Shown here in pieces: positions 252 through 21,182 of a DNA stretch of 32,000 bases (its first letter is position 1; the number at the start of each line of letters is the position of its first letter). The notes under the pieces are model-generated. The model was not told the DNA's origin. It saw only the letters and a list, made by a program, of their open reading frames with translations, and did not search any database. The position numbers and the translations under genes are program-made. Source of the stretch: Candidatus Saccharimonadota bacterium. Lineage in GTDB: Bacteria > Patescibacteriota > Patescibacteriia > 2-12-FULL-60-25. The stretch spans positions 390,001-422,000 of the forward strand of contig CP060222.1 in the NCBI GenBank assembly GCA_023898425.1, given 5' to 3'.

Positions 252-1309
252 TTAACTTTGTTTCTTTTGCTCTACGTCTCTCTTATTCTTTTGAACAATA
301 CGATGGTATACGTTGTTATATCCTTGAACCATTTTATTCACACTAAATAGTCTTTCAACACGGTTTCTACATGCTTTTCTATTAATTTTATCAATGTTGT
401 TGATTGCATCAATCATTTCTTCAGTTGAAGATACAACGAAACCTGTTTCACCATGTTGTACAACCTCTGGTACGGATCCTCGGTTCCAGCCGATTACAGG
501 AGTACCGCAAGACATTGCTTCAATCATAACGAGACCAAATACTTCGTCCCATTGAATTGGGAAAAGCAGGCCTTTCGCATTCTGAAATAATTCGATTTTT
601 TCTTTCTAGATCAGCTTCGCCAACGTAGCTAATCATTGTACCATCAATATGCGGTTCGATATGTTCTTGCCAGTATCCTTCGTTAGCGTAGCTTTTCCCA
701 GCGATTACGAGTTTAGAATTGGTTGCTTTGGCAGCCTCAATAGCCAGATGAATACCTTTTACTTCAGTAAGTCTACCAATGCACAAGAAATAGTCTTTAG
801 GCGTATTACTAAACTTAAACACATTTGTATCAATGCCATGATAGATATTAGCAACCCAGTTTAGCTCTGGGAGTTGTTTTCTTTGAGCTAGCGAAAAGAA
901 ATGTAGTTATTATCTTTATACTGACGAAGAAGCGGCTTTAATTCTTCTGTAATAGTGGTATGAACCGATGATACAGTAGGGGTAGTAACAAGGTTTGAAT
1001 GAAAAAAGAACTCAATAAAGAAAAATGAGAGTGAATTATATCAAATTCACTTGCTCTGCTGTAGCATTGTGAGATTAATGCGTGAGTGTGGTTTCTGATA
1101 GCAGTTTCGGGCAAGGATGATAGGGCTAGTGAGCGAGATGGGTAACCGTGTAGCAGAGTTTTTACTTTTGAATCCGCTGAGCCAAATACGGTAACGGTAT
1201 GCCCTTGTTTTGCGAGAGCGTCAGACAGTTCGCCTGTATGTGAATAAATAGCTTTAGTTGATCGAGGGTCAACTGGGTATAGGTTTGAGACGAGTTGGGC
1301 TATCTTCAT
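252..1309 (-). pseudogene. GT-B fold (GT4-like) glycosyltransferase broken by three frameshifts
   Basis: ORFs 938-1309 (N-terminal Rossmann half, MKIAQLV...DIIHSHF), 520-822 (FLCIGRLTEVKGIHLAIEAA...LVIAG) and 252-527 (MIEAMSCGTPVIG...ETGF) are consecutive parts of one glycosyltransferase in different frames. A fourth segment (about 895-1005, SNLVTTPTVSSVHTTITEELKPLLRQYKDNNYISF) is in yet another frame. The C-terminal frame continues upstream as KIELFQNAKGLLFPIQWDEVFGLVMIEAM. The shifts map to A6 (1004-1009), a T/A-rich run (about 893-901) and T6 (596-601). Confidence 0.75.
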
Positions 1310-1326
1310 AACTACAATTGGACAGG

Positions 1327-2520
1327 TTAAATTAATGATTTAAATAACTTGATATATTGTTTAAATATTTTTTCAGGGTCGTGCTCTTTCTCGAACAAAC
1401 TTATTAATTTTGCTGAAAGCGGTGTTCCGGCTAGTTTTTCAATCTTTTTTACTATGGTTTTGGGTTTGTTAAAATCGCCAATCCATTCAGCGTTGCCAGT
1501 TTTTCGGTAATGGTTTACCCATCCTACAGAGGATGAGATAATGGTTCCAATGCCTTGTGAAGCAGCTTCTAGGACAACGGTGGGAGATACGTCGAACAAA
1601 GAAGGCAATATGGCGATGTCCATTGTACTGAAGAATTTTAAAATCCCCTTACTATCAGTGGGTTTGTGCACCTCAATGAGCTCTCGGTATCTTTTTTTTT
1701 TTTCATCTTCTGAAGTTTGTTGGACTCGAGAATTGTTGTAATAACATGAAGTTTGATAGGCAGTTTTTGTGCGTCAATTTCCTCAGCTAGTGCTAACACG
1801 GCATTGTGATTCTTGATTCTGTCCCATCTTGCAACCAGACCTACGTTTATATTTTTGTGAGTATTTTTAGATCGTGGTTTCTTCTTTGATGCCTTGCTAA
1901 AGGGCGGGAAGTGGAATTATACAGCGCTTTGATTTTGATGTTCTCAGCACTGTTTTTTGAAAAACTTCTTCGCTGTAGCTATTTAAGAAGACTTGTTTTG
2001 TGGCAAGAGTAGCCGAATCAGTTTCAAATCTCTTCAGTAAATTTTCTGTATGAGATGTATAATATTCGGCGTAAGTATCGACTTCTATATGCAGTATGCC
2101 AGCATGCAATTGGACGACAGGTATCCCTTCTTTATGTGCAGCTATCAATAGCAACCAAGGGCTTAAAAACATTCCATTTATTAATACTATATCTGGCTTC
2201 AATGTTCGTAGTTGTTCTCTTATGAGTTCAATAACCTTGCTTAGCACTGCTGTTGGGTCTATGGGTTGATTTGCTTTGCGTACTTTTACTGCTAGCTTTT
2301 TAGGAAACGTCAGATCGATATATTCTAAGGAGCCACGTTTATATACGGATTTTGCTTGTGGTTTTGAAAGGTCTGCTTTTCTTATGATTATTCCAGTATA
2401 CTGATGCTTTGATTTCTTTAAATACAAAGCTAATTGTGCAGAGAACCGTGCTAAGCCGCCTTCTTCAATGGCTCGATTCCCAGGTATATTTGCTAAGCAG
2501 TCAGTAGAGAGTATATGCAT
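1327..2520 (-). pseudogene. Second GT-B glycosyltransferase, split by two frameshifts (one in a 12-nt homopolymer)
   Basis: ORF 1897-2574 is the N-terminal half (likely start MHILSTD... at 2520). The middle segment (about 1704-1915, KASKKKPRSKNTHKNINVGLVARWDRIKNHNAVLALAEEIDAQKLPIKLHVITT) reads in a different frame. ORF 1327-1671 is the C-terminal half (ILKFFSTMDIAILPSLFDVSPTVVLEAASQGIGTIISS = E..fg..lEA motif). The junctions lie at about 1897-1920 (ccc g ccc run) and at the T12 tract 1692-1703. Confidence 0.7.
1692..1703. repeat. Homopolymer tract, 12 x T on + strand (A12 in the coding sense of the minus-strand glycosyltransferase)
   Basis: Direct count: position 1691 is c, then t x12 (1692-1703), then c. 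It encodes a Lys run (KKKK) in the mid-segment frame. Confidence 0.95.
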
Positions 2521-2673
2521 AAAATAATAACAGAATACAAGCGAGATTGTGCCAGAATTTGTCCATTTTGTCAATCTAAAACGCCTCTTTGTGCAAAAAA
2601 TATGGCTTTATTTAGCAAAAAATGGTTGCAGGCTATATGTTAATTATATTATTTATACGTTCATAAGACATAA

Positions 2674-2720: not shown

Positions 2721-3263
2721 TTACTGTTGCGTCTTTAGATAATCAAGCATGGTCTTCGCATCTGAGATCTCAAACGGATCTGTAGGACAGTCATCAGAGA
2801 AGCCAGGTTCTACGAACATCTTCTTGATTTCGCCGTCTACAACATACATTGAGTAGCGCCAGGAGCGGTCACCGAAGCCGAGATTGCTCTTTTTTACGAG
2901 CATACCCATGCCACGAGTGAAGTCACCATTACCATCTGGAAGCAAGAAGGTTTTTTCTACATTCTGTGCTTTGCCCCAGTTGAACATTACGAAAGCATCG
3001 TTAACGGAGAGACAGATAACTTGGTCAACACCAAGCGCTTTAAAATCATCGTTTGCAGCTTCGTAACCAGGAAGATGCGTTGATGAGCAGGTAGGGGTAT
3101 ATGCGCCAGGTAATGAGAACAAGACAATTTTTTTACCAGCAAAGATATCGTTGGTCGAGAGATCCTGCCAGCGATACGGGTTAGGACCATCGACGCTCTC
3201 ATCTCTTACGCGGGTTTTAAATACAACCTCAGGTACGCGAGCGCCTTCTGTTAAATGAGACAT
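2721..3263 (-). CDS. Peroxiredoxin, Prx5-like subfamily (AhpC/TSA superfamily)
   Basis: MSHLTEGARVPEVVF...FSLPGAYTPTCSSTHLPGY... The PGA(Y/F)TPTCS peroxidatic-Cys motif is typical of Prx5-type enzymes. I chose the internal ATG at 3263 (MSHL...) rather than the track start at 3308, because the 15 extra residues are not family-like. Confidence 0.9.
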   Translation of the reverse strand: MSHLTEGARVPEVVFKTRVRDESVDGPNPYRWQDLSTNDIFAGKKIVLFSLPGAYTPTCSSTHLPGYEAANDDFKALGVDQVICLSVNDAFVMFNWGKAQNVEKTFLLPDGNGDFTRGMGMLVKKSNLGFGDRSWRYSMYVVDGEIKKMFVEPGFSDDCPTDPFEISDAKTMLDYLKTQQ

Positions 3264-3387
3264 GTTTTTATAGGGTTTAAAGATAAATAAATGTGGCAAG
3301 CCACGCACTGAAGATGCCAGTCGGACAAGGGGCTGTCAAAGATTGGTCTTGGTCATTTTGTGAACTTTCGTGATAAAGTTTTAATAT

Positions 3388-4023
3388 ATGTGTTTTTCAG
3401 CTACAGCAAGTTTCGTTGCATCCGCAACGTTGATTCCAGTAGGTGCTTATGCCTTAACTAAGGCAAAACCAAAAGATCGTTTCATCGCTCTAGCGCCATT
3501 ATTATTTGGGATACAACAAGGCATAGAGGGTTTTCAATGGATGCTCGTACATGCGGGACAGCCAAATCAGTATTTAGGGTATGCGTTTATGTTTTTTGCC
3601 TTTCTCTTTTGGCCATGGTTTATCCCACTTTCGCTCTACAAGGCTGAGTTGGACGCAAAAAAGAGACGCCTTATGCTAGCGCTTCTTTTTATAGGGGTAG
3701 CAACAAGCTTAGGATTGCTCATGGTTTTGTTGATGACACCCATGCAAATACTCATTCATCAAAGTTGTTTGCAGTATGATGTGCCAATTCAGCTACCGGT
3801 ACTAATACCGCTTGCACTTGGATATCTTGTTTCTGCCTGTGTGGCGCCTTTGCTTTCGAGTTATCGCTGGGTGCGACCAATGGGTGTTATTGGTTTATTT
3901 GCTGTTATTTTTTCTTTTGTTCTTTTCTGGACGGTATTTACCTCGGTATGGTGCTTCTTTGCCGCTGCGTTAAGTGTTTTTTGTCTTCTTCACGTTTTTG
4001 ATGAGAAGGGGCTCATCAAGTAA
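3388..4023 (+). CDS. Hypothetical multi-pass integral membrane protein
   Basis: 211 aa with about six hydrophobic segments (e.g. FVASATLIPVGAYAL, YLGYAFMFFAFLFWPWFIPLSL, LMLALLFIGVATSLGLLMVLLM). I do not recognise a family with confidence. Confidence 0.6.
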   Translation: MCFSATASFVASATLIPVGAYALTKAKPKDRFIALAPLLFGIQQGIEGFQWMLVHAGQPNQYLGYAFMFFAFLFWPWFIPLSLYKAELDAKKRRLMLALLFIGVATSLGLLMVLLMTPMQILIHQSCLQYDVPIQLPVLIPLALGYLVSACVAPLLSSYRWVRPMGVIGLFAVIFSFVLFWTVFTSVWCFFAAALSVFCLLHVFDEKGLIK

Positions 4024-4320
4024 AACGACGCTACCTTTGATGGCTGTTAAAAGCCCATGCTTATCAGAAATGGGTTTTAGATTTATCAGTGTTTTATATT
4101 TAGCTTCACCAATCAGAAAGTGAACCGGTTCGCGTTTGATCTCGGTACCTTTAAAGACATCAACTATACATTGTAAAAAATGTGGTAAGTCTTCACGTGT
4201 GACATACTCATCAAGTGCTTCGCCAATAAGAGTCTTCACAGATAGCAAAGCTGACAATTCTGGATCCGTGTCCACAAGACGAAAGTGGCGGTCTGTAGTA
4301 AACTTGTAAGTAGTAGACAT
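3970..4320 (-). CDS. Stand-alone PAS-like domain protein (cassette copy 1)
   Basis: 116 aa. KFTTDRHFRLVDTDPELSALLSV..LIGEALDEYVTREDLPHFLQCIVDVFKGTEIKREPVHFLIGEAKYKTLINLKPISDKHGLLTAIKGSVVLLD follows the PAS pattern (vtD..G.I..vN.a.e.l.G....l.G..l.d.........l......g....e......g.......l.p......g..g.......D). Homologous to the 5694-6056 product. Confidence 0.6.
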   Translation of the reverse strand: MSTTYKFTTDRHFRLVDTDPELSALLSVKTLIGEALDEYVTREDLPHFLQCIVDVFKGTEIKREPVHFLIGEAKYKTLINLKPISDKHGLLTAIKGSVVLLDEPLLIKNVKKTKNT

Positions 4321-4337
4321 AGCTCTTGTAGTTTATC

Positions 4338-5060
4338 ATGACACCTTCTTTTGAACAGACTCCAGCAGAACAAAAGCATCGCAAGCACGCGACGCGAATC
4401 TTAGGAGTGCTACAAAAGCGTGAGCTAGAAGGGGGTTTATCACCGTTAGAAGAGCAAAATGGCAAGCTTCCAATGTTGTTATCAGGTGATATTGTGCTTA
4501 TTCGACATAAAAAGGGGAGTCTGGCACGCAAAATCCTTCGTATCATCACTGACAGTTATTGGGATCATACGGCTATGATTATGTACCGCGAGAATCATTC
4601 GCGTGGGTATTCGTCTAATGTTATTTTAGAGTCATTGCGTGGTGGGTGGACGAAGCCCTATTATTTCGGTGCCGAGCTTCATCGTCTTAATAAATATCTA
4701 GATGATCCTGAAAAGTTTGATATAGGTATCAAACGATTTACTTGGCTAGATAAGTCGCTCAGACAAAGAGTAAGAGCCTATGCTTTGGCCTATGTAGATA
4801 CGCCATACTATCCGTATTGGACATGGAAGTTTTTGCTCGGTCTTATTCTCCCGAGTGTAAGAAAACGCATCTTAGCTACACAGCGATATACGTGTTCGGC
4901 GCTTATACAAAAAGCCTACTACGAAGCCGTTGATTTAGCTGATCGACAAAAAATTATGTTTCGTAAGCTTGACTATATGCCGATTCAACTTCTAGACATC
5001 ACTTCACCGGCAGATATCGCGAATAGTGATGTGACGACTTGGATCTATAATCAGCACTAA
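4338..5060 (+). CDS. Circularly permuted NlpC/P60 (YaeF/YiiX-like, peptidase C92-type) protein, type A, copy 1
   Basis: 240 aa. The motifs occur in the order GDIVLIR, SYWDH (His), ILES (acidic), FDIGIKR, TPYYPY, RYTCSALIQKAYYEA (Cys). This matches the E. coli YiiX pattern GDIIF..YSH..EA..V.R..PYD..YCSELV. A basic, poorly conserved N-terminal stretch of about 45 aa precedes the domain. No signal peptide or TM segment. Confidence 0.7.
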   Translation: MTPSFEQTPAEQKHRKHATRILGVLQKRELEGGLSPLEEQNGKLPMLLSGDIVLIRHKKGSLARKILRIITDSYWDHTAMIMYRENHSRGYSSNVILESLRGGWTKPYYFGAELHRLNKYLDDPEKFDIGIKRFTWLDKSLRQRVRAYALAYVDTPYYPYWTWKFLLGLILPSVRKRILATQRYTCSALIQKAYYEAVDLADRQKIMFRKLDYMPIQLLDITSPADIANSDVTTWIYNQH

Positions 5061-5062
5061 TT

Positions 5063-5692
5063 ATGGCAACGCTCTACCCAACAATAAAAGAGGCCATGCA
5101 ACACCTAGAAGTAGGTGATATTGTGTTAATGCGCTCTCGTTCTAATGGATTGTTCCGTCGAGCGATCCGGGAGTTGAGTCAAAGCTACTGGACACATGCT
5201 GCCATGGTCTTTGAAACGGTGAACATTGGTGGAGAGGTTGTATCTGTTTCGATTGTAGAAGCAAATGAAACAATTGAGGTCCATCGTTTAGAGACGTATG
5301 TCGCTAGTGAGCGTTATGATATTGGCATCAAAAGACTTCCAGGTCTCACTGAACTTGATAGAGATCGTATTCGTGGATTCTTTTTGGATGCTCTGGATAT
5401 CCCATATGATTACACATATATATTCGCTATTATGTTTGCACGAATATTAAGTTTCTTTTTAGGGAATAAGGCTTACCGATGGTTCGTAAAAAAATTTAGT
5501 CATGATAATTCGTATATTTGTACAACGTTTGCCCAGCGCGCCTTATACCTTGCTTCTGAGCCAGGACGTAGAAGAGCCGCTCTATTTAACGATGTTGCAG
5601 AACTTACTTTTGTTGAACAAATGTATCTTGTAAATCCACAAACAATATCTTCTAGTAAAAATACCATGTGGGTATTTAATGCTCACGAGTAG
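5063..5692 (+). CDS. Circularly permuted NlpC/P60 (YaeF/YiiX-like) protein, type B, copy 1
   Basis: 209 aa. GDIVLMR, SYWTH, IVEANE, YDIGIKR, IPYDYT, SYICTTFAQRALY. Homologous end to end with the type A protein. It starts 2 nt after the A1 stop (taa tt ATG). Confidence 0.7.
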   Translation: MATLYPTIKEAMQHLEVGDIVLMRSRSNGLFRRAIRELSQSYWTHAAMVFETVNIGGEVVSVSIVEANETIEVHRLETYVASERYDIGIKRLPGLTELDRDRIRGFFLDALDIPYDYTYIFAIMFARILSFFLGNKAYRWFVKKFSHDNSYICTTFAQRALYLASEPGRRRAALFNDVAELTFVEQMYLVNPQTISSSKNTMWVFNAHE

Positions 5693-5693
5693 T

Positions 5694-6056
5694 TCAATTT
5701 GATCGAACTGCTTTAAAAAGCGGGGTACAATCAACCGCTTGGTTTTTGATAGTGATATTAAACTGAAGCTTACTCGCAAGACTGTCGTTTTTTTTAATAG
5801 TTGGGATCATGTCCATAGAGAGAAAATGTTTTGCCCCATTTATAACGAGTGTTGCATTGTGTTCAAATATTTTTTCGCCTCGGTATGCAAGTAAGACATC
5901 CTTTAAAAACGATCTTAGGCATTGTCGATCAAGCCATTGATCCATAGGTTTGCCCAGGGCGTCTTTTTCTTTGATATTGAATGTTGATAAGAGCTCAGAA
6001 GAGATATCAACAACATCAAGCTTCTCGTCTGTGGTAATATGTAGGGAGCTTTTCAT
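5694..6056 (-). CDS. Stand-alone PAS-like domain protein (cassette copy 2)
   Basis: 120 aa. HITTDEKLDVVDISSELLSTFNIKEKDALGKPMDQWLDRQCLRSFLKDVLLAYRGEKIFEHNATLVINGAKHFLSMDMIP aligns with the 3970-4320 product (TTD..VD..EL...G...D...R..L..FL...G..I...I.GAK). Confidence 0.6.
   Translation of the reverse strand: MKSSLHITTDEKLDVVDISSELLSTFNIKEKDALGKPMDQWLDRQCLRSFLKDVLLAYRGEKIFEHNATLVINGAKHFLSMDMIPTIKKNDSLASKLQFNITIKNQAVDCTPLFKAVRSN
6032..6040 (+). promoter_or_regulatory. Extended -10 element (TGgTAATAT) for the A2/B2 operon, located inside the PAS-like gene copy 2
   Basis: TG at 6032-6033 and TAATAT at 6035-6040. An AGGGAG (6043-6048) lies in the predicted short leader, and the ATG is at 6063. 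Confidence 0.45.
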
Positions 6057-6062
6057 TTTCGC

Positions 6063-6092
6063 ATGATATCATTTCTTTTTAAAAAACAACAA
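6063..6092 (-). promoter_or_regulatory. Promoter of PAS-like gene copy 2 (TTGTTG-18-TGaTATCAT), predicted leaderless
   Basis: On the minus strand the TATCAT hexamer is the complement of 6063-6068, so it overlaps the ATG of A2 on the other strand. The extended TG is the complement of 6070-6071. Six nt separate the hexamer from the PAS2 ATG (6056). Confidence 0.5.
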
Positions 6093-6788
6093 GAGCTCGC
6101 AACAGCGAAAAATCAAAAACGCATTGCAAAAAAACTTGCTCATACGAGGTATAAACATGTCACGGTTTCTCCTCTTGAATATATCAACGGTAAGTTACCA
6201 AAACTGCTTACCGGGGATATCGTTTTAATACGTAAAAAGAACGGTGGTATAGGACGAGCGATATTTAGACGTATTACGAATAGCTACTGGGATCACATAG
6301 CACTAGTCATCTTTGGTAAAAACATCGAACGTGGTTACTCAACGAACATTATTATTGAGTCGATTCAGGGCTCGGCTGATAGACCGTTTTACTTTGGCGC
6401 AGAAATACATGCGCTTGATAAATATTTAAACGATCCAAAAGAATTTGATATCGGTATTAAACGTGTAACGTGGCTCACTCGTGCTCAGCGTCATAAGATA
6501 CGGTCTTATGCTCTCATGAATATTGATACGCCATACTATCCACTAAAAACTTGGAGACTGATAAAGCCCTATATTTTTTTCATGGCGAAAAAACAAGTTT
6601 TAACTCGTCAGAGATATTCGTGTTCTGCCTTGGTACAAAAAGCCTACTATGAAGCACTTGATCCAACGGTGCGCATGAAGGTGCTTTTTGGTAATCGTGC
6701 ATTTACACCTATGCAATTACTCGATATAACGTCACCCGCTGATTTTGGCCGAAGCCCTTTAAGCGAATGGATCTATAATAAACACTGA
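6063..6788 (+). CDS. Circularly permuted NlpC/P60 (YaeF/YiiX-like) protein, type A, copy 2
   Basis: 241 aa. By eye it is identical to the 4338-5060 product at a majority of positions (GDIVLIR, SYWDH, IIES, FDIGIKR, TPYYPL, RYSCSALVQKAYYEA, ...WIYNKH). Confidence 0.7.
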   Translation: MISFLFKKQQELATAKNQKRIAKKLAHTRYKHVTVSPLEYINGKLPKLLTGDIVLIRKKNGGIGRAIFRRITNSYWDHIALVIFGKNIERGYSTNIIIESIQGSADRPFYFGAEIHALDKYLNDPKEFDIGIKRVTWLTRAQRHKIRSYALMNIDTPYYPLKTWRLIKPYIFFMAKKQVLTRQRYSCSALVQKAYYEALDPTVRMKVLFGNRAFTPMQLLDITSPADFGRSPLSEWIYNKH

Positions 6789-6789
6789 T

Positions 6790-7443
6790 ATGGAACAATA
6801 CAGAAAAAAACGCAAGCCCAAGTCAGTTTATAAAAATTATAATGAAGCCATCAAACATCTTCAGATTGGTGACATAGTCTTTTTTCATGGAAAAATTGGC
6901 TGGCAAAGAACACTCAATAGAATTGTCAGCCGTTCATACTGGACTCATGTTTCCATTGTATTTGAAATTGTTAAATCAGGAGATGAGGTTTTATCTGTTA
7001 TTTTAATCGAAGCTAATGAAACGGTGAGATTACATCGCCTCGAAACATTCGCCTTACAAGAATATGAATATGAGATAGGTTTTAAACGCGTGCCGGGTCT
7101 AACGCCTAAAGAGATTGACCGCTTTAGAGGATTCTTTTTAGATGTTATTGATATTGAGTATGACTATGACCATGTTATGTATCTGTTCTTTCAGTTCTTG
7201 CTTTCGCGTTTTATCGGTGTACAGCTTACAAAGAAACTTGTAAGACATGTCCTCGCTACTGACGAGTATATTTGTTCATCGTTTGTTCAGAGGGCACTTT
7301 ATCTAGCTGTTGAACCAGATAAAAGAAGAGATGTGCTCTTTCTTGGTAATGATGTACCTTATGCTATCGCGCATGGTCTTGTATTGCCTAAGGACATCGC
7401 TGTGAGCAAAAGCACCATCTGGTTATATAATCCACACGAATAA
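6790..7443 (+). CDS. Circularly permuted NlpC/P60 (YaeF/YiiX-like) protein, type B, copy 2
   Basis: 217 aa. GDIVFFH, SYWTH, LIEANE, YEIGFKR, IEYDYD, EYICSSFVQRALY, ...WLYNPHE. It starts 1 nt after the A2 stop (tga t ATG). Confidence 0.7.
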   Translation: MEQYRKKRKPKSVYKNYNEAIKHLQIGDIVFFHGKIGWQRTLNRIVSRSYWTHVSIVFEIVKSGDEVLSVILIEANETVRLHRLETFALQEYEYEIGFKRVPGLTPKEIDRFRGFFLDVIDIEYDYDHVMYLFFQFLLSRFIGVQLTKKLVRHVLATDEYICSSFVQRALYLAVEPDKRRDVLFLGNDVPYAIAHGLVLPKDIAVSKSTIWLYNPHE

Positions 7444-13026: not shown

Positions 13027-13692
13027 CTAGAAGGATTCTAGTAGGGCTTTGAGTTGATCATGACATGCTTGTTTCTTGTCACTAGCAATGCCGAAAAGCT
13101 TTGGGATTAAGCGATAGAAAGGAGGTGATTTGTCATCGCCGCGGTGTGGCGGTTCAAGGATGGCGGTGTCAGCGACGGTCGCTCCTGCGAACGGGACTTC
13201 GGATGTTGCGACGTAGGAGTTTCGCCTCAGTTCGACGTCTTCGACATGGATGTCTAGATCTCGTCTACATCTTGCCCCATGTGACGGATTCGTCACGGTG
13301 ATGACCTTTGTGATAGACCGCCGTTTGTATTCGGCGTAAATACAGCGAAGCTCCTGCGCGGTATTTTGACTTTCAGTGTCAAGAAAGGCTTCTTCCAAAA
13401 GTGGTCTCATTGTGGAGACGCTCAGTCCCTTGAATGACTTTTCAAACATCAATGAGATGAGGTTTTTCAAGGCAAAGTCTCTCGTCCAGATCGCTTCTTT
13501 GACGCCGTTTATTTCGGACGCGCCTGTGCCAAAGGAGAGCATTGAAGCATCTTCTTTGATAGCGATATACAGAGCCATCGGTATCTGCCCCAACCGTCCG
13601 TCGCTCGAAAGCCACATATGTTGATGCCAGTCTACTGCTTGCAAATGCCTGCCATGGCAGTGCACGGCAACCTTTTGTGTCTGTGTGCTCAT
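13027..13692 (-). CDS. YdcF/DUF218-family-like protein
   Basis: 221 aa. AFLDTESQNTAQELRCIYAEYKRRSITKVITVTNPSHGARCRRDL parallels E. coli YdcF (IEDQSTNCGENARF...TAIVVQDPTMQRRT). The upstream SFGTGAS is comparable to ISGGIGHS. An SD-like AAGGA lies 7 nt before the ATG. Confidence 0.5.
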   Translation of the reverse strand: MSTQTQKVAVHCHGRHLQAVDWHQHMWLSSDGRLGQIPMALYIAIKEDASMLSFGTGASEINGVKEAIWTRDFALKNLISLMFEKSFKGLSVSTMRPLLEEAFLDTESQNTAQELRCIYAEYKRRSITKVITVTNPSHGARCRRDLDIHVEDVELRRNSYVATSEVPFAGATVADTAILEPPHRGDDKSPPFYRLIPKLFGIASDKKQACHDQLKALLESF

Positions 13693-13729
13693 TAAGGATT
13701 CCTTTGTTGTGGTAAAAGAACGACAATTG

Positions 13730-13758
13730 CTTATAGTATTCTATTACGGTTTTGTCAA
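13730..13758 (-). promoter_or_regulatory. Promoter TTGACA-17-TATAAG for the YdcF-like gene
   Basis: On the minus strand the -35 is the complement of 13753-13758 (perfect TTGACA) and the -10 is the complement of 13730-13735. The spacer is exactly 17 nt. Confidence 0.65.
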
Positions 13759-13922
13759 TGGATCCGTGTATTACAACTCGATGGCGGTCGTCAGAAGAGC
13801 GCGCTCCCGCACGCTGTTCAGGTGCGCTGATTGTTTTTTATATTGGCAAAATACACCCCATCGTCTAAATTGTTGTTAGTTCTTTTTAGCGTATAGACGC
13901 TACGGAAACTCGGAGGGTCAGC

Positions 13923-14486
13923 ATGGAGCGTGAATCTCAAACAACTCGCAGCGATGAGCAAACAGCTCAGGTGAGAGTAGAATCTGAGATCCCTGCAAAG
14001 CGGATCTCTTCTGAAGAAATAATCGCCCCCAAGAGCGGGCATATGATTACAAGCTTGGTGCGTTATGAGTTGATTTGTATTCAGCTCAAATGCCGTAAGT
14101 CGCCTGAACGCCTTGTTGTCCTTGATACAGATGCTCATGCGAGGGTGCGCCTTGCTTGGGTGTATCCAACAGCGAACTACTCTTCGGGGCAGCTGCACGA
14201 AGTTGTTTTTTCTTTCGAAGGAGAGAGCCTATCTCTCATTCCGAGTTTGTCTGAGTGTTTTAAGCGCGAATATATTCAAAAGAGCGCTGATTTCTCAACA
14301 ATGATGCCAACACGAGTAGTATCTGATCTTGTTGGTCGTATTTCTGACGATGCGATAAATTTAACTGTCGTGCGTCCACCTGATGAGATGCCTCTTGTAA
14401 AAGAGCATTACAATATCTACGGCATTCTTGGTAAGCGAGAAGCTTTGTGGAAGTTGTGGCAGCAAAAAGCTCCACTCGATCGCTAG
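13923..14486 (+). CDS. Hypothetical protein (orphan), polar and probably disordered N-terminus
   Basis: 187 aa. A strong SD, GGAGGG (13912-13917), lies 5 nt before the ATG, and the gene has its own terminator. I do not recognise a family. Confidence 0.6.
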   Translation: MERESQTTRSDEQTAQVRVESEIPAKRISSEEIIAPKSGHMITSLVRYELICIQLKCRKSPERLVVLDTDAHARVRLAWVYPTANYSSGQLHEVVFSFEGESLSLIPSLSECFKREYIQKSADFSTMMPTRVVSDLVGRISDDAINLTVVRPPDEMPLVKEHYNIYGILGKREALWKLWQQKAPLDR

Positions 14487-14514
14487 AACCCTGACCTATG
14501 TCAGGGTTCGTTTT
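14487..14514 (+). terminator. Rho-independent terminator
   Basis: AACCCTGAC-ctat-GTCAGGGTT followed by cgTTTT, starting immediately after the stop at 14484-14486. Confidence 0.8.
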
Positions 14515-14522
14515 ATATTATA

Positions 14523-14551
14523 TTGACAAAATCATATTTTTTTGATATATC
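14523..14551 (+). promoter_or_regulatory. Promoter TTGACA-17-TATATC with extended TG
   Basis: TTGACA at 14523-14528, a 17-nt spacer, and TGaTATATC with the hexamer at 14546-14551. The track's ATG at 14552 would lie upstream of the predicted transcription start site (TSS). Confidence 0.7.
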
Positions 14552-14584
14552 ATGCTCGCTCATCACAAAAACATTGGAGGTGGT

Positions 14585-15100
14585 ATGAGTGGTAAGAAGA
14601 ATGATAAAAAGGCCCCAAAGTTGATCGACCTAGAGTTGATGCAACAGGAGCTGAAGCTCAGAAAGCTACACCCCATTCTCATTGGTCTAGAACTGGCCGA
14701 AGGTACGGAGATGGCATTGTCCATCGTCCCCGGAAAGTCGGGTCACCCTCTCGAGCTCGAGATCAATGGACCCGACCTACAGGTCATCACTTTCGAGTTC
14801 GACGAGTGTATCGATTACTCGATCCTCCCCTCGATTCCTATCGACAGCCGCATCATTCTGGCTGCCGCAAGTGAAGACGTCCCAGGCTACCTCGATCATT
14901 ACGTAGCAAATATCGCTTCAGTGATGGCCGCATGCCTTGGTGAGCTCAAGGTCGAGTTCATCGAGCCAACCAACTCTGATTCGATCAGTGAGGTGGACAT
15001 TGTCCACTTCACTTTCACGATCGGGGAAAAGGAGTTCTTCACCACCGCCACGGTTCATGAGGTCGAGCACCTCATGAACTTCTTGCCCAAAGCTGCCTAG
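14585..15100 (+). CDS. Hypothetical acidic protein (orphan), GC-rich codon usage
   Basis: 171 aa from the ATG at 14585, which is preceded by GGAGGTGG (14576-14583). The protein is rich in E/D/I/L. Third codon positions are rich in G/C (ctc, gag, gac, atc, tcg). I do not recognise a family. Confidence 0.6.
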   Translation: MSGKKNDKKAPKLIDLELMQQELKLRKLHPILIGLELAEGTEMALSIVPGKSGHPLELEINGPDLQVITFEFDECIDYSILPSIPIDSRIILAAASEDVPGYLDHYVANIASVMAACLGELKVEFIEPTNSDSISEVDIVHFTFTIGEKEFFTTATVHEVEHLMNFLPKAA

Positions 15101-15120
15101 CAAAAAACCTTAACTACTTA

Positions 15121-15171
15121 AACGTGTCTGTAATCTAGGTAATTCTACCAAAGGTTATGGACACGTTTTTT
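15121..15171 (+). terminator. Long-hairpin terminator
   Basis: AACGTGTCTGTAA ... TTATGGACACGTT (about 13 bp including two G-U pairs), with an inner GGTA/TACC pairing, followed by TTTTT. Confidence 0.6.
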
Positions 15172-15181
15172 CTTTAGAATA

Positions 15182-15210
15182 TTGACAATTTATATTAAAA
15201 TATGTACTGT
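15182..15210 (+). promoter_or_regulatory. Promoter TTGACA-17-TACTGT
   Basis: TTGACA at 15182-15187, a 17-nt spacer and TACTGT at 15205-15210. The track's TTG 'start' at 15182 is actually the -35 box. Confidence 0.55.
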
Positions 15211-15238
15211 CAACATCGTTTCGCGTTCTTTTACAAGG

Positions 15239-15676
15239 ATGGAAGAGATGTTTTCATCAACAAAGATTGCAAAAGGTTATTCTGCCGAGAGGCTGAATTT
15301 GTCTGGGCTCATGCTTTTTGAAGTAGAGCATCAAGAACGAGTGAAGTCTTTGATTACAAAAATCAAGCCTCGACTTCGTTCTGTTGATCGGCCTTTTTTG
15401 AGAGTAGAAGAGGTCACGGACTGCGTTCGACTCGTAAAGGTCACACAAGGCAAAAGCGTTGATTATGACATCGTTGGCCTCGCTTGCTTCAAAGAAACGA
15501 TTCTTGGTCCCTTAAAAGGGGAGATTCGTTACTATGGATGCTCGGTTATCGATGGTGTCAGTCTCGCTCTTCAAAGAGAGCTCGAGATCTTTACGCTAAA
15601 TAGCTTGAAAGATGAAACACATTACCGTATTATCAATCTGTCACAATTGAACCGGGAGGATTTGCGTGCTTCATAA
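15239..15676 (+). CDS. Hypothetical protein (orphan)
   Basis: MEEMFSSTKIAKGY... An alternative ATG at 15248 is preceded by AAGGA. Its stop overlaps the downstream gene by 11 nt. I do not recognise a family with confidence. Confidence 0.55.
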   Translation: MEEMFSSTKIAKGYSAERLNLSGLMLFEVEHQERVKSLITKIKPRLRSVDRPFLRVEEVTDCVRLVKVTQGKSVDYDIVGLACFKETILGPLKGEIRYYGCSVIDGVSLALQRELEIFTLNSLKDETHYRIINLSQLNREDLRAS

Positions 15677-16181
15677 CAGTAATCATCCAATTAGCATTCA
15701 GCAGCTTGATAGAGAGCACGAGCAAGGACTACGTGTAGACGCTCGGCTACGAAGCAGGGTAGCCAACAGTATTGGCGCATCCTTGCTCAAAGCCGTGATC
15801 TTTCCAACGAGTTTTTTGCAGGCGCTTTCTAGACGCGGTAACTTGTATCTTGCAAAGCGTGACGATCAAGTCGTTGGAGCTGCTTATATGAAATTCATTC
15901 ATCGGCAACTGATGGGTGAATTGCTGGAACGTCAAAATTGGGCCGTTCTCTACGGTATTGATGCTGAAAACGAAACAATCTTTCGCTCGCTACTTCAATA
16001 CGTATTGGATGTGAATGCCCAACAAGGCATAAAGCGTCTCTATATTGGCAATGGTTTGCGTCGTAACGTCGTTGCTGCACTCAAGGCAAGCGTCGTTCAT
16101 CGAGAAACAAAGATCCTTCATGGATTAGACCTTGAGCTTTGTTTTGACAACGGACCTCAAGAGTTTTCTTTTCTGAAGTAG
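15666..16181 (+). CDS. Hypothetical protein, weak GNAT-acetyltransferase-like pattern
   Basis: A GTG start is preceded by the strong SD GGGAGGA (15654-15660). LYLAKRDDQVVGAAYMKF ... YGIDAENETIFRSLLQYVLDVNAQQGIKRLYI loosely resembles the GNAT beta4-alpha3-beta5 region but lacks a clear Q/RxxGxG/A motif. Confidence 0.5.
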   Translation: MLHNSNHPISIQQLDREHEQGLRVDARLRSRVANSIGASLLKAVIFPTSFLQALSRRGNLYLAKRDDQVVGAAYMKFIHRQLMGELLERQNWAVLYGIDAENETIFRSLLQYVLDVNAQQGIKRLYIGNGLRRNVVAALKASVVHRETKILHGLDLELCFDNGPQEFSFLK

Positions 16182-19547: not shown

Positions 19548-19623
19548 CGCTTTGTTTGGTAGCTGGTTCAATAGATTTGTCTTGGACTTTTGAATATTGT
19601 TACGCAACCAAAAAGAGGTGTCC

Positions 19624-20493
19624 ATGCGAAATCCGTCAGTAGCACAACGCGCTCCTCGGTCGATTGGCTTGCCAGCATATACAGCTTTTCTTAGGCCAAG
19701 CATGGCTCATGATGCTGTAGATCTTGGTCGAGATTCAAGTCATCGAGAAGCGTTAGCGCTCTGCGTCTTTCTGCTTTGCTTAAGAAAACATCGGATGATC
19801 GCTACACATGAGGAGCCTGCCAATGATGCAGCGCCGAATGAGGTGACAGAGCACATCGACTTGACGAGTGAGCAAGACTGGAGAATGTGGGAGCAGTCAC
19901 GTATAGATCGTGCACATGAACGCGAACGCCGTCATTGGACGAGTCGAGCGGCGATGCCTGACCTTGCCGTCCAAGAGTTCAATGAAGTGATCAAGAGCGT
20001 TGATCGTGTTGACGAGAGCCTGTATAGGTTCACGATTACCGATCGGGCTTTGGGTGATTTCATTCGTCATTTTTTTGCCTATAGCCGCAAGGTTGGGCAT
20101 TTCTGTGAATGGATGGCTGAAAGTCCTGATCTCTGCAAGCAGACGCTCTATGATCCATATGGCGTCAAACGATTTTCTCAGCTCGAGACAACAGACAAGC
20201 GCGCTGTTCGTCATGAGATGCGACTCTTGCTTCAAGAATCCCTCAAAGCCCTGATTGCCTACAGTGAGTTGGGGCATGGTAAAAATGCTCACAGAGAGCA
20301 AAAAACAGAAGTGAGAATATTGAATATCTCGACACGAGAGCGTTTTTGCGCCGTCTTGGATCGAGAAAACTATATGATCATTGCCTTCTATCCTGAGAGC
20401 GAGCGCAATCGTAAGCGCGCTTATAAGTCACCTCGTCAATTCGACATCCGACTTAAGAGCCATCGCAATCGTAAAGAAGGACGCTTGCACTGA
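19624..20493 (+). CDS. Hypothetical protein (orphan), Arg/His-rich with a basic C-terminal tail
   Basis: The ATG at 19624 is preceded by AGAGGTG (19614-19620); the track's TTG at 19597 is less likely. The gene is locally GC-rich (hand count 38/60 in 19921-19980). I do not recognise a family. Confidence 0.55.
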   Translation: MRNPSVAQRAPRSIGLPAYTAFLRPSMAHDAVDLGRDSSHREALALCVFLLCLRKHRMIATHEEPANDAAPNEVTEHIDLTSEQDWRMWEQSRIDRAHERERRHWTSRAAMPDLAVQEFNEVIKSVDRVDESLYRFTITDRALGDFIRHFFAYSRKVGHFCEWMAESPDLCKQTLYDPYGVKRFSQLETTDKRAVRHEMRLLLQESLKALIAYSELGHGKNAHREQKTEVRILNISTRERFCAVLDRENYMIIAFYPESERNRKRAYKSPRQFDIRLKSHRNRKEGRLH

Positions 20494-20561
20494 TACTGAG
20501 ACGGCCATTATCCACGGCACCTGCTTTGGATGATGGTCGTTTTATGTTATTCTTCTTGTAT

Positions 20562-21182
20562 ATGGCCACTCAAAAAATGTCACGTGACTGGATGGAAGTC
20601 TTTATTGGTATCGGTGTTATCATTTTTATTGCATTTCTTGTTATCCCTCCAATGGCAACACGAGTGGCAACAAAAGAGATTCAACGTTATAGAGAATGTC
20701 AGGTTGCTGCCAGAGAAGATTGTAAGGCATCTATTGTTTGGAGACTTTATGATATCGCTCTTATTCAGTCCGGGGCGATCAATTTAACGAACAGTGCGTA
20801 TCAACAAGAGATTCAAGGTTTAATTGGAAGCGGTCGCGCAAAAACACCGCTTAGAAGCTCTGATAATGCCGCTATTATCGATACCTCAGAATTAGTTGGT
20901 CAAAATCCAGGCGCAGATGGTTTTTATCGTCCTAATGGTGGAGAAGAACTCGAAGTAAAGGCAACAATCACAGGCAACCCTGATGAAGTATTACTGTACT
21001 TAGTGCCAAAAGGTGTAGAGACAGCTGGCATCCCAGAAAAAGCCGGCGTGATGAAGGCAGAGGGCACAAACTACTCGACAAAGGTGCTTATTCCTAATGG
21101 TTATGTAGGAGAGCTCGAAATTCGTGCCGTTGGCCCGGGCAAAGAGCAGTCGCAGTTATATTTTGATATTGCTGCCCAGTAA
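20562..21182 (+). CDS. Hypothetical N-terminally membrane-anchored protein
   Basis: One TM segment (VFIGIGVIIFIAFLVIPPMA), followed by a soluble, beta-rich C-terminal region (EELEVKATITGNPDEVLLYLVPKG...GELEIRAVGPG). The start is uncertain: ATG 20562 or 20577, versus the track's 20526. Confidence 0.5.
   Translation: MATQKMSRDWMEVFIGIGVIIFIAFLVIPPMATRVATKEIQRYRECQVAAREDCKASIVWRLYDIALIQSGAINLTNSAYQQEIQGLIGSGRAKTPLRSSDNAAIIDTSELVGQNPGADGFYRPNGGEELEVKATITGNPDEVLLYLVPKGVETAGIPEKAGVMKAEGTNYSTKVLIPNGYVGELEIRAVGPGKEQSQLYFDIAAQ

Follow-up and report, generated by a model that had tools for sequence, protein, structure and literature searches.

A duplicated gene cassette in Patescibacteria encodes two permuted NlpC/P60 (YiiX-family) cysteine enzymes and a putative stand-alone PAS partner

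The closest described relatives of the proteins considered here are YiiX of Escherichia coli (PDB 2IF6) and BcPPNE of Bacillus cereus (PDB 3KW0), both members of the YaeF/YiiX family, a group of circularly permuted, papain-like NlpC/P60 cysteine enzymes (Pfam PF05708, Peptidase_C92; MEROPS C92). The catalytic set of this group according to Xu et al. 2011 comprises a Cys, a His, a Glu and a signature Tyr, which in BcPPNE are Cys154, His49, Glu64 and Tyr127 (PMC3142127). YiiX was crystallised with a fatty acid in its hydrophobic S1 pocket, and the permuted NlpC/P60 members have hydrophobic S1 pockets that were judged unsuitable for peptides (PMC3142127). Elsewhere in the permuted group, LnsA is required for the N-acylation of lipoproteins (PMC7387801), Tox-Act1 and TseH act as phospholipases, and the LRAT/PLAAT proteins act as acyltransferases and phospholipases (PMC12994826). 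Here we report a locus that encodes four such enzymes within a 32,000-nt window, meaning the whole stretch of DNA that was analysed, which spans positions 390,001–422,000 of contig CP060222.1 from a Candidatus Saccharimonadota bacterium (Patescibacteriota; assembly GCA_023898425.1). At 3970–7443 of this window, six open reading frames (ORFs) make up two tandem copies of a three-gene cassette, each with a small PAS-type protein, S, on the minus strand and two paralogous enzymes, A and B, on the plus strand.

The first cassette consists of S1 (3970–4320, minus strand, 116 aa), a 17-nt spacer between the divergent start codons of S1 and A1 (4321–4337), A1 (4338–5060, plus strand, 240 aa) and B1 (5063–5692, plus strand, 209 aa). 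The second has the same layout, with S2 (5694–6056, minus strand, 120 aa), a 6-nt spacer between the divergent start codons of S2 and A2 (6057–6062), A2 (6063–6788, plus strand, 241 aa) and B2 (6790–7443, plus strand, 217 aa). The stop codon of A1 is separated from B1 by 2 nt and that of A2 from B2 by 1 nt, while B1 and S2 are convergent with stop codons 1 nt apart. The four large proteins can be aligned over their whole length with 37 invariant columns; in this alignment A1 and A2 are 52% identical and the A proteins are 28–29% identical to the B proteins, and tblastn comparisons across A and B give E-values of 1e-17 to 1e-32. S1 and S2 share 24% identity (E = 2e-9). The repeated three-gene unit is real and far beyond chance. 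The initial annotation of this DNA had given the same coordinates, sizes and strands for the six ORFs and the same A-to-B gaps, and its claim of full-length homology among the four large proteins is confirmed by the alignment and by tblastn, with every motif that it listed falling among the invariant columns.

PF05708 is the sole Pfam family matched by A1, B1, A2 and B2, and the Pfam scan found no extra domains on A or B. Three of the four proteins score above the gathering score of this family, which is 27 bits: A1 (36.1 bits, E = 8.4e-9), B1 (34.7 bits, E = 2.3e-8) and A2 (39.7 bits, E = 6.8e-10). B2 falls 0.5 bit under it (26.5 bits, E = 7.9e-6); it aligns end to end with B1 and with B orthologues, and its catalytic residues are intact. 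In NCBIfam there were weak matches to YiiX and YaeF only. A profile built from the four A/B proteins and compared with PDB sequences matched BcPPNE (3KW0), placing A1 His77 on BcPPNE His49 and A1 Glu98 on Glu64. An AlphaFold 2 (AF2) model of A1, built with 23 sequences and with a predicted local distance difference test (pLDDT) score of 86.3, had significant fold matches in the PDB to 3KW0 and to YiiX 2IF6 only (E = 1.6e-5, template modelling (TM) score on the target 0.59–0.62). The placement among the permuted NlpC/P60 proteins (PF05708/C92), which the initial annotation had made from motifs, is thus borne out by Pfam, by the profile match to 3KW0 and by the fold matches of the A1 model.

In accordance with this placement, the catalytic residues can be assigned in all four proteins: His77, Glu98, Tyr157 and Cys186 in A1; His78, Glu99, Tyr158 and Cys187 in A2; His45, Glu66, Tyr115 and Cys153 in B1; and His53, Glu74, Tyr124 and Cys162 in B2. 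His and Glu precede Tyr and Cys in each, which is the circularly permuted order, and the four residues are invariant across 23 A/B sequences and 10 B orthologues. Each of A1, B1, A2 and B2 contains a single cysteine, namely the catalytic one. The alignments therefore uphold the earlier statement that His comes before Cys and that all four proteins keep both, and, judged from sequence, A and B each retain a complete predicted catalytic set of Cys nucleophile, His, Glu and oxyanion Tyr. Within the YaeF/YiiX family, A and B are ancient paralogs of each other.

The small proteins had been described as having a PAS fold with no output domain, a description that is supported by the S1 model and its Foldseek matches, by Pfam matches of orthologues and by the family profile. 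The divergent gene of locus L003, which is equivalent to S, matches PF00989 at 3e-10 and its product aligns with S1 and S2, and a profile search with S recovered 25 stand-alone proteins of 79–155 aa, nearly all of which have Pfam PAS matches. S2 scores 106 bits with the S-profile hidden Markov model (HMM) and aligns with bona fide PAS orthologues. Compared with PDB sequences, the S family profile matches PAS domains at 9.6e-8, including those of MmoS, DosP, LOV proteins and hERG. The AF2 model of S1 (pLDDT 84.7) has the topology b-b-a-a-a-b-b-b, with strands at residues 3–9, 14–18, 61–70, 73–85 and 91–100 and helices at 20–25, 36–39 and 45–56, and thus presents the five-strand PAS order with helices between strands 2 and 3. 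A Foldseek search of the PDB with this model gave 381 matches at E ≤ 1e-3, and the best 50 of the 381 are all PAS or LOV domains (TM 0.63–0.77). S1 and S2 retain little beyond a core of about 100 residues and begin at the first β-strand, and the invariant residues of the family are D37, G58 and P83. By predicted fold and family profile, then, S is a PAS domain without an output domain.

To place the cassette in a wider context, 62 related loci were collected, and each S, A and B was classified with profile HMMs. In every locus that is long enough, A is followed by B on the same strand without exception, and in about 30 loci S lies divergent and directly upstream of A. Near-identical proteins are found in Patescibacteria metagenome-assembled genomes labelled Magasanikbacteria or Nomurabacteria, one protein (P0053), from a 1.03-Mb contig, being identical to B1. 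All relatives with a named source are from Patescibacteria, apart from the label of L005 (CAYOMV010000036.1). We reject that label, 'uncultured Gammaproteobacteria', as a probable binning error, because the locus is gene-for-gene syntenic with the Patescibacteria loci L002 and L006–L008 (YibE_F, TrxB, S, A, B, ComEC). With 330 matches at E ≤ 1e-3, and 29 clusters at E ≤ 1e-30, in a set of 1.84 billion representative proteins, the A/B subfamily is a small one.

The window has its tandem double cassette in common with L001, L012, L013, L017–L020 and L022; together they belong to one clade, which also shares peroxiredoxin, DUF6629, xth and rarA neighbours. In a distance tree, the A/B split is older than all sampled lineages, and duplication of the cassette maps to a single event at the base of the double-cassette clade. 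The ratio of nonsynonymous to synonymous divergence (dN/dS) is 0.165 for S1 and 0.183 for S2, both against L013, and 0.188 for B1; these are the only three ratios obtainable, as dS is saturated in the other pairs, where dN is 0.12–0.19. B2 is 84% identical to its L013 orthologue (dN 0.125), and S evolves 2–3 times faster than A and B. All genes are thus under purifying selection. The neighbourhood survey that the initial annotation had proposed thus finds the module to be recurrent in Patescibacteria loci, and the selection on the trio as a unit that it had deduced is supported because the trio is conserved in about 30 loci and the duplicated unit has been kept throughout the clade. As a separate observation, A is split into 2–3 ORFs beside an intact B in L013 (4193–4993), L024 (452–1192), L025 (2587–3327), L040 (221–985) and L062 (3795–4549), and B is split into two ORFs in L004 (frameshift or assembly error); the split genes reflect either assembly error or occasional, recurrent decay.

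By hydropathy, none of the six proteins has a transmembrane segment or a signal-like N-terminus (maximum 19-residue Kyte–Doolittle value below 1.5), as had been noted before for the four large ones, and for that reason A and B are predicted to be cytoplasmic. The A-type proteins begin with a helical extension whose conserved part is a 'PLE..G.LP.L' motif directly before the catalytic core. This extension had been called rich in Lys, Arg and His; it is clearly basic in A2 (net charge +8) but has a net charge of only +1 in A1. Taken as whole proteins, A1 and A2 have net charges of +11 and +23, and the B-types are near neutral (B1 −1). In both A and B, the segment from Tyr to Cys forms a hydrophobic helical hairpin, and it is the equivalent region that builds the acyl-binding tunnel of YiiX (PMC3142127).

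A further difference among the A proteins lies next to the active site. A1 has a 13-residue loop after Glu98, which has low confidence in the AF2 model (about 60). The corresponding loop is 12–13 residues long in 24/24 A proteins encoded beside S and 5–6 residues long in 14/14 A proteins from S-less loci with a visible upstream region, and in B it is 4–5 residues long in 30 of the 31 proteins measured. The insertion of 7–8 residues beside the catalytic Glu of A is therefore a candidate docking site for S.

The spacing of A and B also bears on how they might work. Among 49 non-redundant A–B junctions, 34 have gaps of 1–3 nt and four overlap. Tiny gene junctions are a classic signature of translational coupling and usually join genes for equimolar subunits of a complex, though this is a general principle and not proof. 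The junction statistics lend weight to the idea of an A:B complex without proving it.

By analogy with its described members, the literature on permuted NlpC/P60 proteins favours a fatty-acyl substrate over peptidoglycan. The initial annotation had offered two functional hypotheses, a ligand-gated cytoplasmic amidase or acyltransferase and an enzyme with a regulator or inhibitor, both of which are still conjecture. The reading that we prefer, with a probability of about 0.5, is that A and B form a cytoplasmic hetero-oligomer for acyl hydrolysis or transfer, with the PAS protein as its ligand-binding partner or regulator. A and B would be made in coupled, roughly equal amounts and would act together in the cytoplasm, probably peripheral to the membrane because A is strongly basic and because both proteins have the hydrophobic hairpin between Tyr and Cys. 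An acyl-thioester would form on a Cys of the complex, and the acyl group would then be hydrolysed or handed to an acceptor, in phospholipase A/acyltransferase or fatty-acyl amidase chemistry. S would bind a small ligand, or sense a redox or lipid signal, and since it has no DNA-binding or kinase output it would control or assist the enzyme by direct protein contact, or alternatively present the substrate; a candidate site for this contact is the loop insertion beside the catalytic Glu of A. The two cassettes would be specialised versions, with a different substrate or signal, that go back to one old duplication. One neighbourhood fits the lipid inference as a single case: in L004 (7312–11606), an S-less A–B pair lies in an apparent operon with genes for a PlsC-type acyltransferase, a YegS/diacylglycerol-kinase-type lipid kinase and an AMP-forming ligase. 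It is tempting to go further and regard S-A-B as a ligand-gated cytoplasmic acyl-remodelling machine, a hetero-oligomer switched by its PAS subunit, with which lipid-auxotrophic Patescibacteria would remove and re-add acyl chains on phospholipids or lysolipids taken from their hosts, its cassettes tuned to different lipids or signals, but this more specific picture is tentative and we think it unlikely.

Several observations weigh against a regulated acyl-processing complex. The lipid-gene neighbourhood is found in L004 only, and B is frameshifted there. The nearest relatives, YiiX and BcPPNE, are themselves without an assigned function, the substrate of YiiX included, and BcPPNE was crystallised with lysine, not with a lipid (PMC3142127). 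No A–B fusion protein is present among the best 150 of the 330 subfamily matches, so the putative A:B complex is deduced from gene order and junctions. As for S, neither S1 nor S2 itself has a Pfam PAS match, and the family alignment contains no conserved Cys or His for cofactor binding. About 17 loci have room for S but do without it, so that S is not essential to the A–B pair; the A proteins of these S-less loci are at most 45% identical to A1. The correlation between the long loop and S may stem from a single evolutionary event, and the P0017–P0020 group has the long loop, yet no S gene is called at the P0019 locus.

The lysine in BcPPNE points to another reading, in which A and B would be cytoplasmic peptide or amino-acid amidases for nutrient salvage in an auxotroph, for example in murein-peptide recycling or in the cleavage of γ-glutamyl or N-acyl amino-acid bonds, with S sensing the substrate or product. 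The NlpC/P60 superfamily consists mostly of peptidoglycan-peptide hydrolases, the lysine was bound free in the active site of what is the closest solved relative by sequence (PMC3142127), and PBP2, a Mur ligase and a D,D-carboxypeptidase are encoded in the window. However, the S1 pockets of permuted members have been judged ill-suited to peptides (PMC3142127), and all of the permuted members that have been assayed act on acyl lipids (PMC7387801, PMC12994826). Cell-wall genes are not conserved neighbours of the module in other lineages, and cytoplasmic proteins cannot act on the sacculus. We therefore regard amidase activity of this kind as unlikely, while holding it ahead of the alternatives that follow.

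When 555 flanking ORFs from 63 loci were clustered, no flanking family was common to different lineages and only lineage-specific synteny blocks were found; because its flanking genes vary in this way, the trio is self-contained. Oxidative-stress genes nevertheless flank it in three separate lineages: a peroxiredoxin gene (2721–3308 of the window, minus strand) in the clade of the window (8 loci), a thioredoxin reductase gene convergent with S in the clade of L002, L005–L008, L026, L030 and L054 (6397–7350 in L002), and a gene for an iron superoxide dismutase directly downstream, plus a hemerythrin gene, at the P0019 locus. Together with the redox- and O2-sensing PAS domains of MmoS and DosP among the best PDB sequence matches of the S profile, these neighbours would fit the repair of oxidised membrane lipids, a sub-case of the acyl-processing reading in which scavenged phospholipids would be stripped of their peroxidised acyl chains by A:B, with the PAS protein sensing oxygen or redox state. 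This sub-case seems to us improbable, as the association involves three independent lineages only and the other lineages have no such neighbours, no His or Cys that could support heme or flavin-adduct chemistry is conserved in S, and the ligand of a PAS domain is not predictable from sequence similarity.

The position of S invites a still less probable explanation, namely that S is functionally unrelated to A–B and is a conserved syntenic neighbour with a common compact bidirectional promoter region. This would account for the S-less loci and for the faster evolution of S. On the other hand, about 30 loci with otherwise different neighbours keep S in the same divergent position, 6–38 nt from A, the cassette duplication included S and both copies of it were kept along with A–B, and in 5/5 cases checked from the S side the S homologue stands beside A–B or is linked to it by a shared contig (P0037, P0012). 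Least credible of all is a toxin–immunity or defence system, with the C92 enzyme(s) as a membrane-damaging toxin, like the type VI secretion effectors Tox-Act1 and TseH, and S or a paralog as the neutralising partner. Permuted NlpC/P60 phospholipase toxins do exist beside immunity genes (PMC12994826), the module places a small protein beside an enzyme, and cassette duplication is common in conflict systems. However, neither the proteins nor their neighbours carry domains associated with secretion, signal peptides are absent, and the PADLOC defence models gave only a chance-level match of S2 to JetA (E = 0.003, 14.6 bits). The locus is also stable and inherited vertically, with conserved synteny amid housekeeping genes, the purifying selection on A, B and S is not accompanied by the fast diversification that conflict genes typically show, and the roughly 17 loci that keep A–B without S would be intolerable if S were the antidote.

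The start-codon spacers between S and A, 6–38 nt long and always 38 nt or shorter, were also analysed for signals that the two genes might share. The 17-nt S1/A1 spacer has the same sequence in L001, L013 and L009, contains no visible Shine–Dalgarno sequence and leaves no room for two separate promoters, each with its leader. A2 starts with a perfect 10-nt palindrome, ATGATATCAT (6063–6072), 6 nt from the S2 start codon, and both this 6-nt spacer and the palindrome are the same in L001 and L013; ATGATATCAT is a possible operator or promoter element common to the divergent S2 and A2. In the single-copy clade, the spacers (L002 7926–7955; L005 7663–7691; L006 5963–6000; L007 5971–6000; L014 4295–4330) have a conserved box, AAAATATTGTATCATA, which contains a −10-like hexamer on both strands (TATCAT/TATGAT, offset 1). 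Symmetric bidirectional promoters have divergent transcription starts 18 bp apart (PMC10268837), and the AAAATATTGTATCATA box would likewise set divergent starts about 18 bp apart, with leaders of about 5–8 nt that lack a Shine–Dalgarno sequence. A conserved TGTATCATA box of the single-copy clade, TATCAT on one strand and TATGAT on the other, fits this published geometry. For the window itself, a shared symmetric bidirectional promoter was considered and rejected, since the 17-nt and 6-nt spacers do not put A/T at −11/−7, and a consensus promoter scan of these spacers found nothing.

Some other neighbours are confined to single clades. A gene for a DUF6629 polytopic membrane protein (3388–4023, plus strand; PF20334, E = 2e-21) is convergent with S1, the 3′ ends of the two genes overlapping by 54 nt. 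It adjoins the double cassette in 8/8 clade loci, on the opposite side in L012, and is absent from other lineages; the protein might serve A/B as a membrane partner, loosely comparable to LnsB, but its position may also be plain synteny. In an S-less clade (L037, L041, L045, L047 and L062), a gene on the opposite strand that we take to encode an SPFH/band-7 (stomatin-like) protein abuts the start of A, with what are presumably an extracytoplasmic function (ECF)-sigma-like gene and a membrane protein gene nearby, the names being read from sequence. Elsewhere in the window, three short ORFs at 938–2574 (minus strand) carry GT4-family glycosyltransferase fragments (N-domain, C-domain, N-domain) and appear to derive from one or two glycosyltransferase genes interrupted by frameshifts or stop codons. 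At 13027–16181 and 19597–21182, seven consecutive or near-consecutive ORFs of 164–298 aa, none with a Pfam match at E ≤ 1e-3, lie amid housekeeping genes.

Patescibacteria do without lipid synthesis, and how they handle lipids is an acknowledged gap (PMC11665869). A lineage-specific enzyme pair is a testable candidate for part of this missing lipid biology, the YiiX family would gain an architecture with an obligate paralog pair and a dedicated PAS partner, and the double cassette provides a natural experiment in the subfunctionalisation of a whole sensor-plus-enzyme unit. If acyl remodelling proved true, Patescibacteria would have their first identified lipid-processing system, and the finding would give a cytoplasmic YiiX-family enzyme its first physiological role and regulatory partner; if A and B proved to be ordinary amidases, they would be a modest addition to the NlpC/P60 catalogue. 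The interest is limited by the indirectness of the lipid link and by the confinement of the module to a modest subgroup.

Compared with known systems, the module recombines familiar parts. A and B share with YiiX and BcPPNE the PF05708/C92 family, the permuted fold and the order His, Glu, Tyr, Cys, but at only 14–17% identity; unlike these proteins, they are always encoded as an A–B gene pair, and A is enlarged by an N-terminal extension and an inserted loop. YiiX, YaeF and LnsA have signal peptides, whereas A and B have none, and neither YiiX nor BcPPNE is known to have a PAS partner. In LnsA/LnsB of Staphylococcus aureus, a YiiX-like permuted NlpC/P60 enzyme likewise needs a second protein and handles fatty-acyl groups (PMC7387801). 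There, however, LnsA is exported, LnsB is a polytopic CPBP-family membrane protein that is encoded elsewhere and is not a paralog, and no PAS protein takes part; being cytoplasmic, A and B could not reach the N-termini of lipoproteins on the outer face. No CPBP-like gene was a conserved neighbour among the clustered flanking ORFs, the sole membrane neighbour being DUF6629, in one clade.

LRAT/PLAAT (HRASLS), Tox-Act1 and TseH also resemble A and B in their permuted core, Cys–His dyad, acyl-enzyme and phospholipase A and/or acyltransferase activity (PMC12994826). They belong to other clades of the permuted group, and A and B match PF05708 only and not LRAT in Pfam. Furthermore, the LRAT/PLAAT proteins have transmembrane anchors, Tox-Act1 and TseH are toxins that are secreted and have cognate immunity proteins, and none of them is a paralog pair with a PAS protein; features of type VI secretion or polymorphic-toxin systems were found neither in the neighbours of the module, nor in the A/B domains, nor with PADLOC, the Tox-Act1 and TseH profiles not having been compared directly. 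On the sensor side, PYP, short LOV proteins and PAS-B domains are single PAS domains without an attached output that signal via partner proteins, and S has the same fold but no LOV cysteine or recognisable cofactor motif.

Public annotations of the homologues read only 'YiiX/YebB-like cysteine hydrolase', 'PAS domain-containing protein' or 'hypothetical protein'. The literature searched yielded no published description of an S-A-B module, or of any partnership between a PAS protein and a pair of cysteine hydrolases, which agrees with the view of the initial annotation that the module was undescribed. The folds themselves are known; what appears new, and so far undescribed, is their assembly, an apparently obligate pair of ancient C92 paralogs with intact predicted catalytic sets, cytoplasmic by prediction and accompanied by a stand-alone PAS partner, which in the sequences collected is restricted to Patescibacteria and was duplicated as a unit in one clade.

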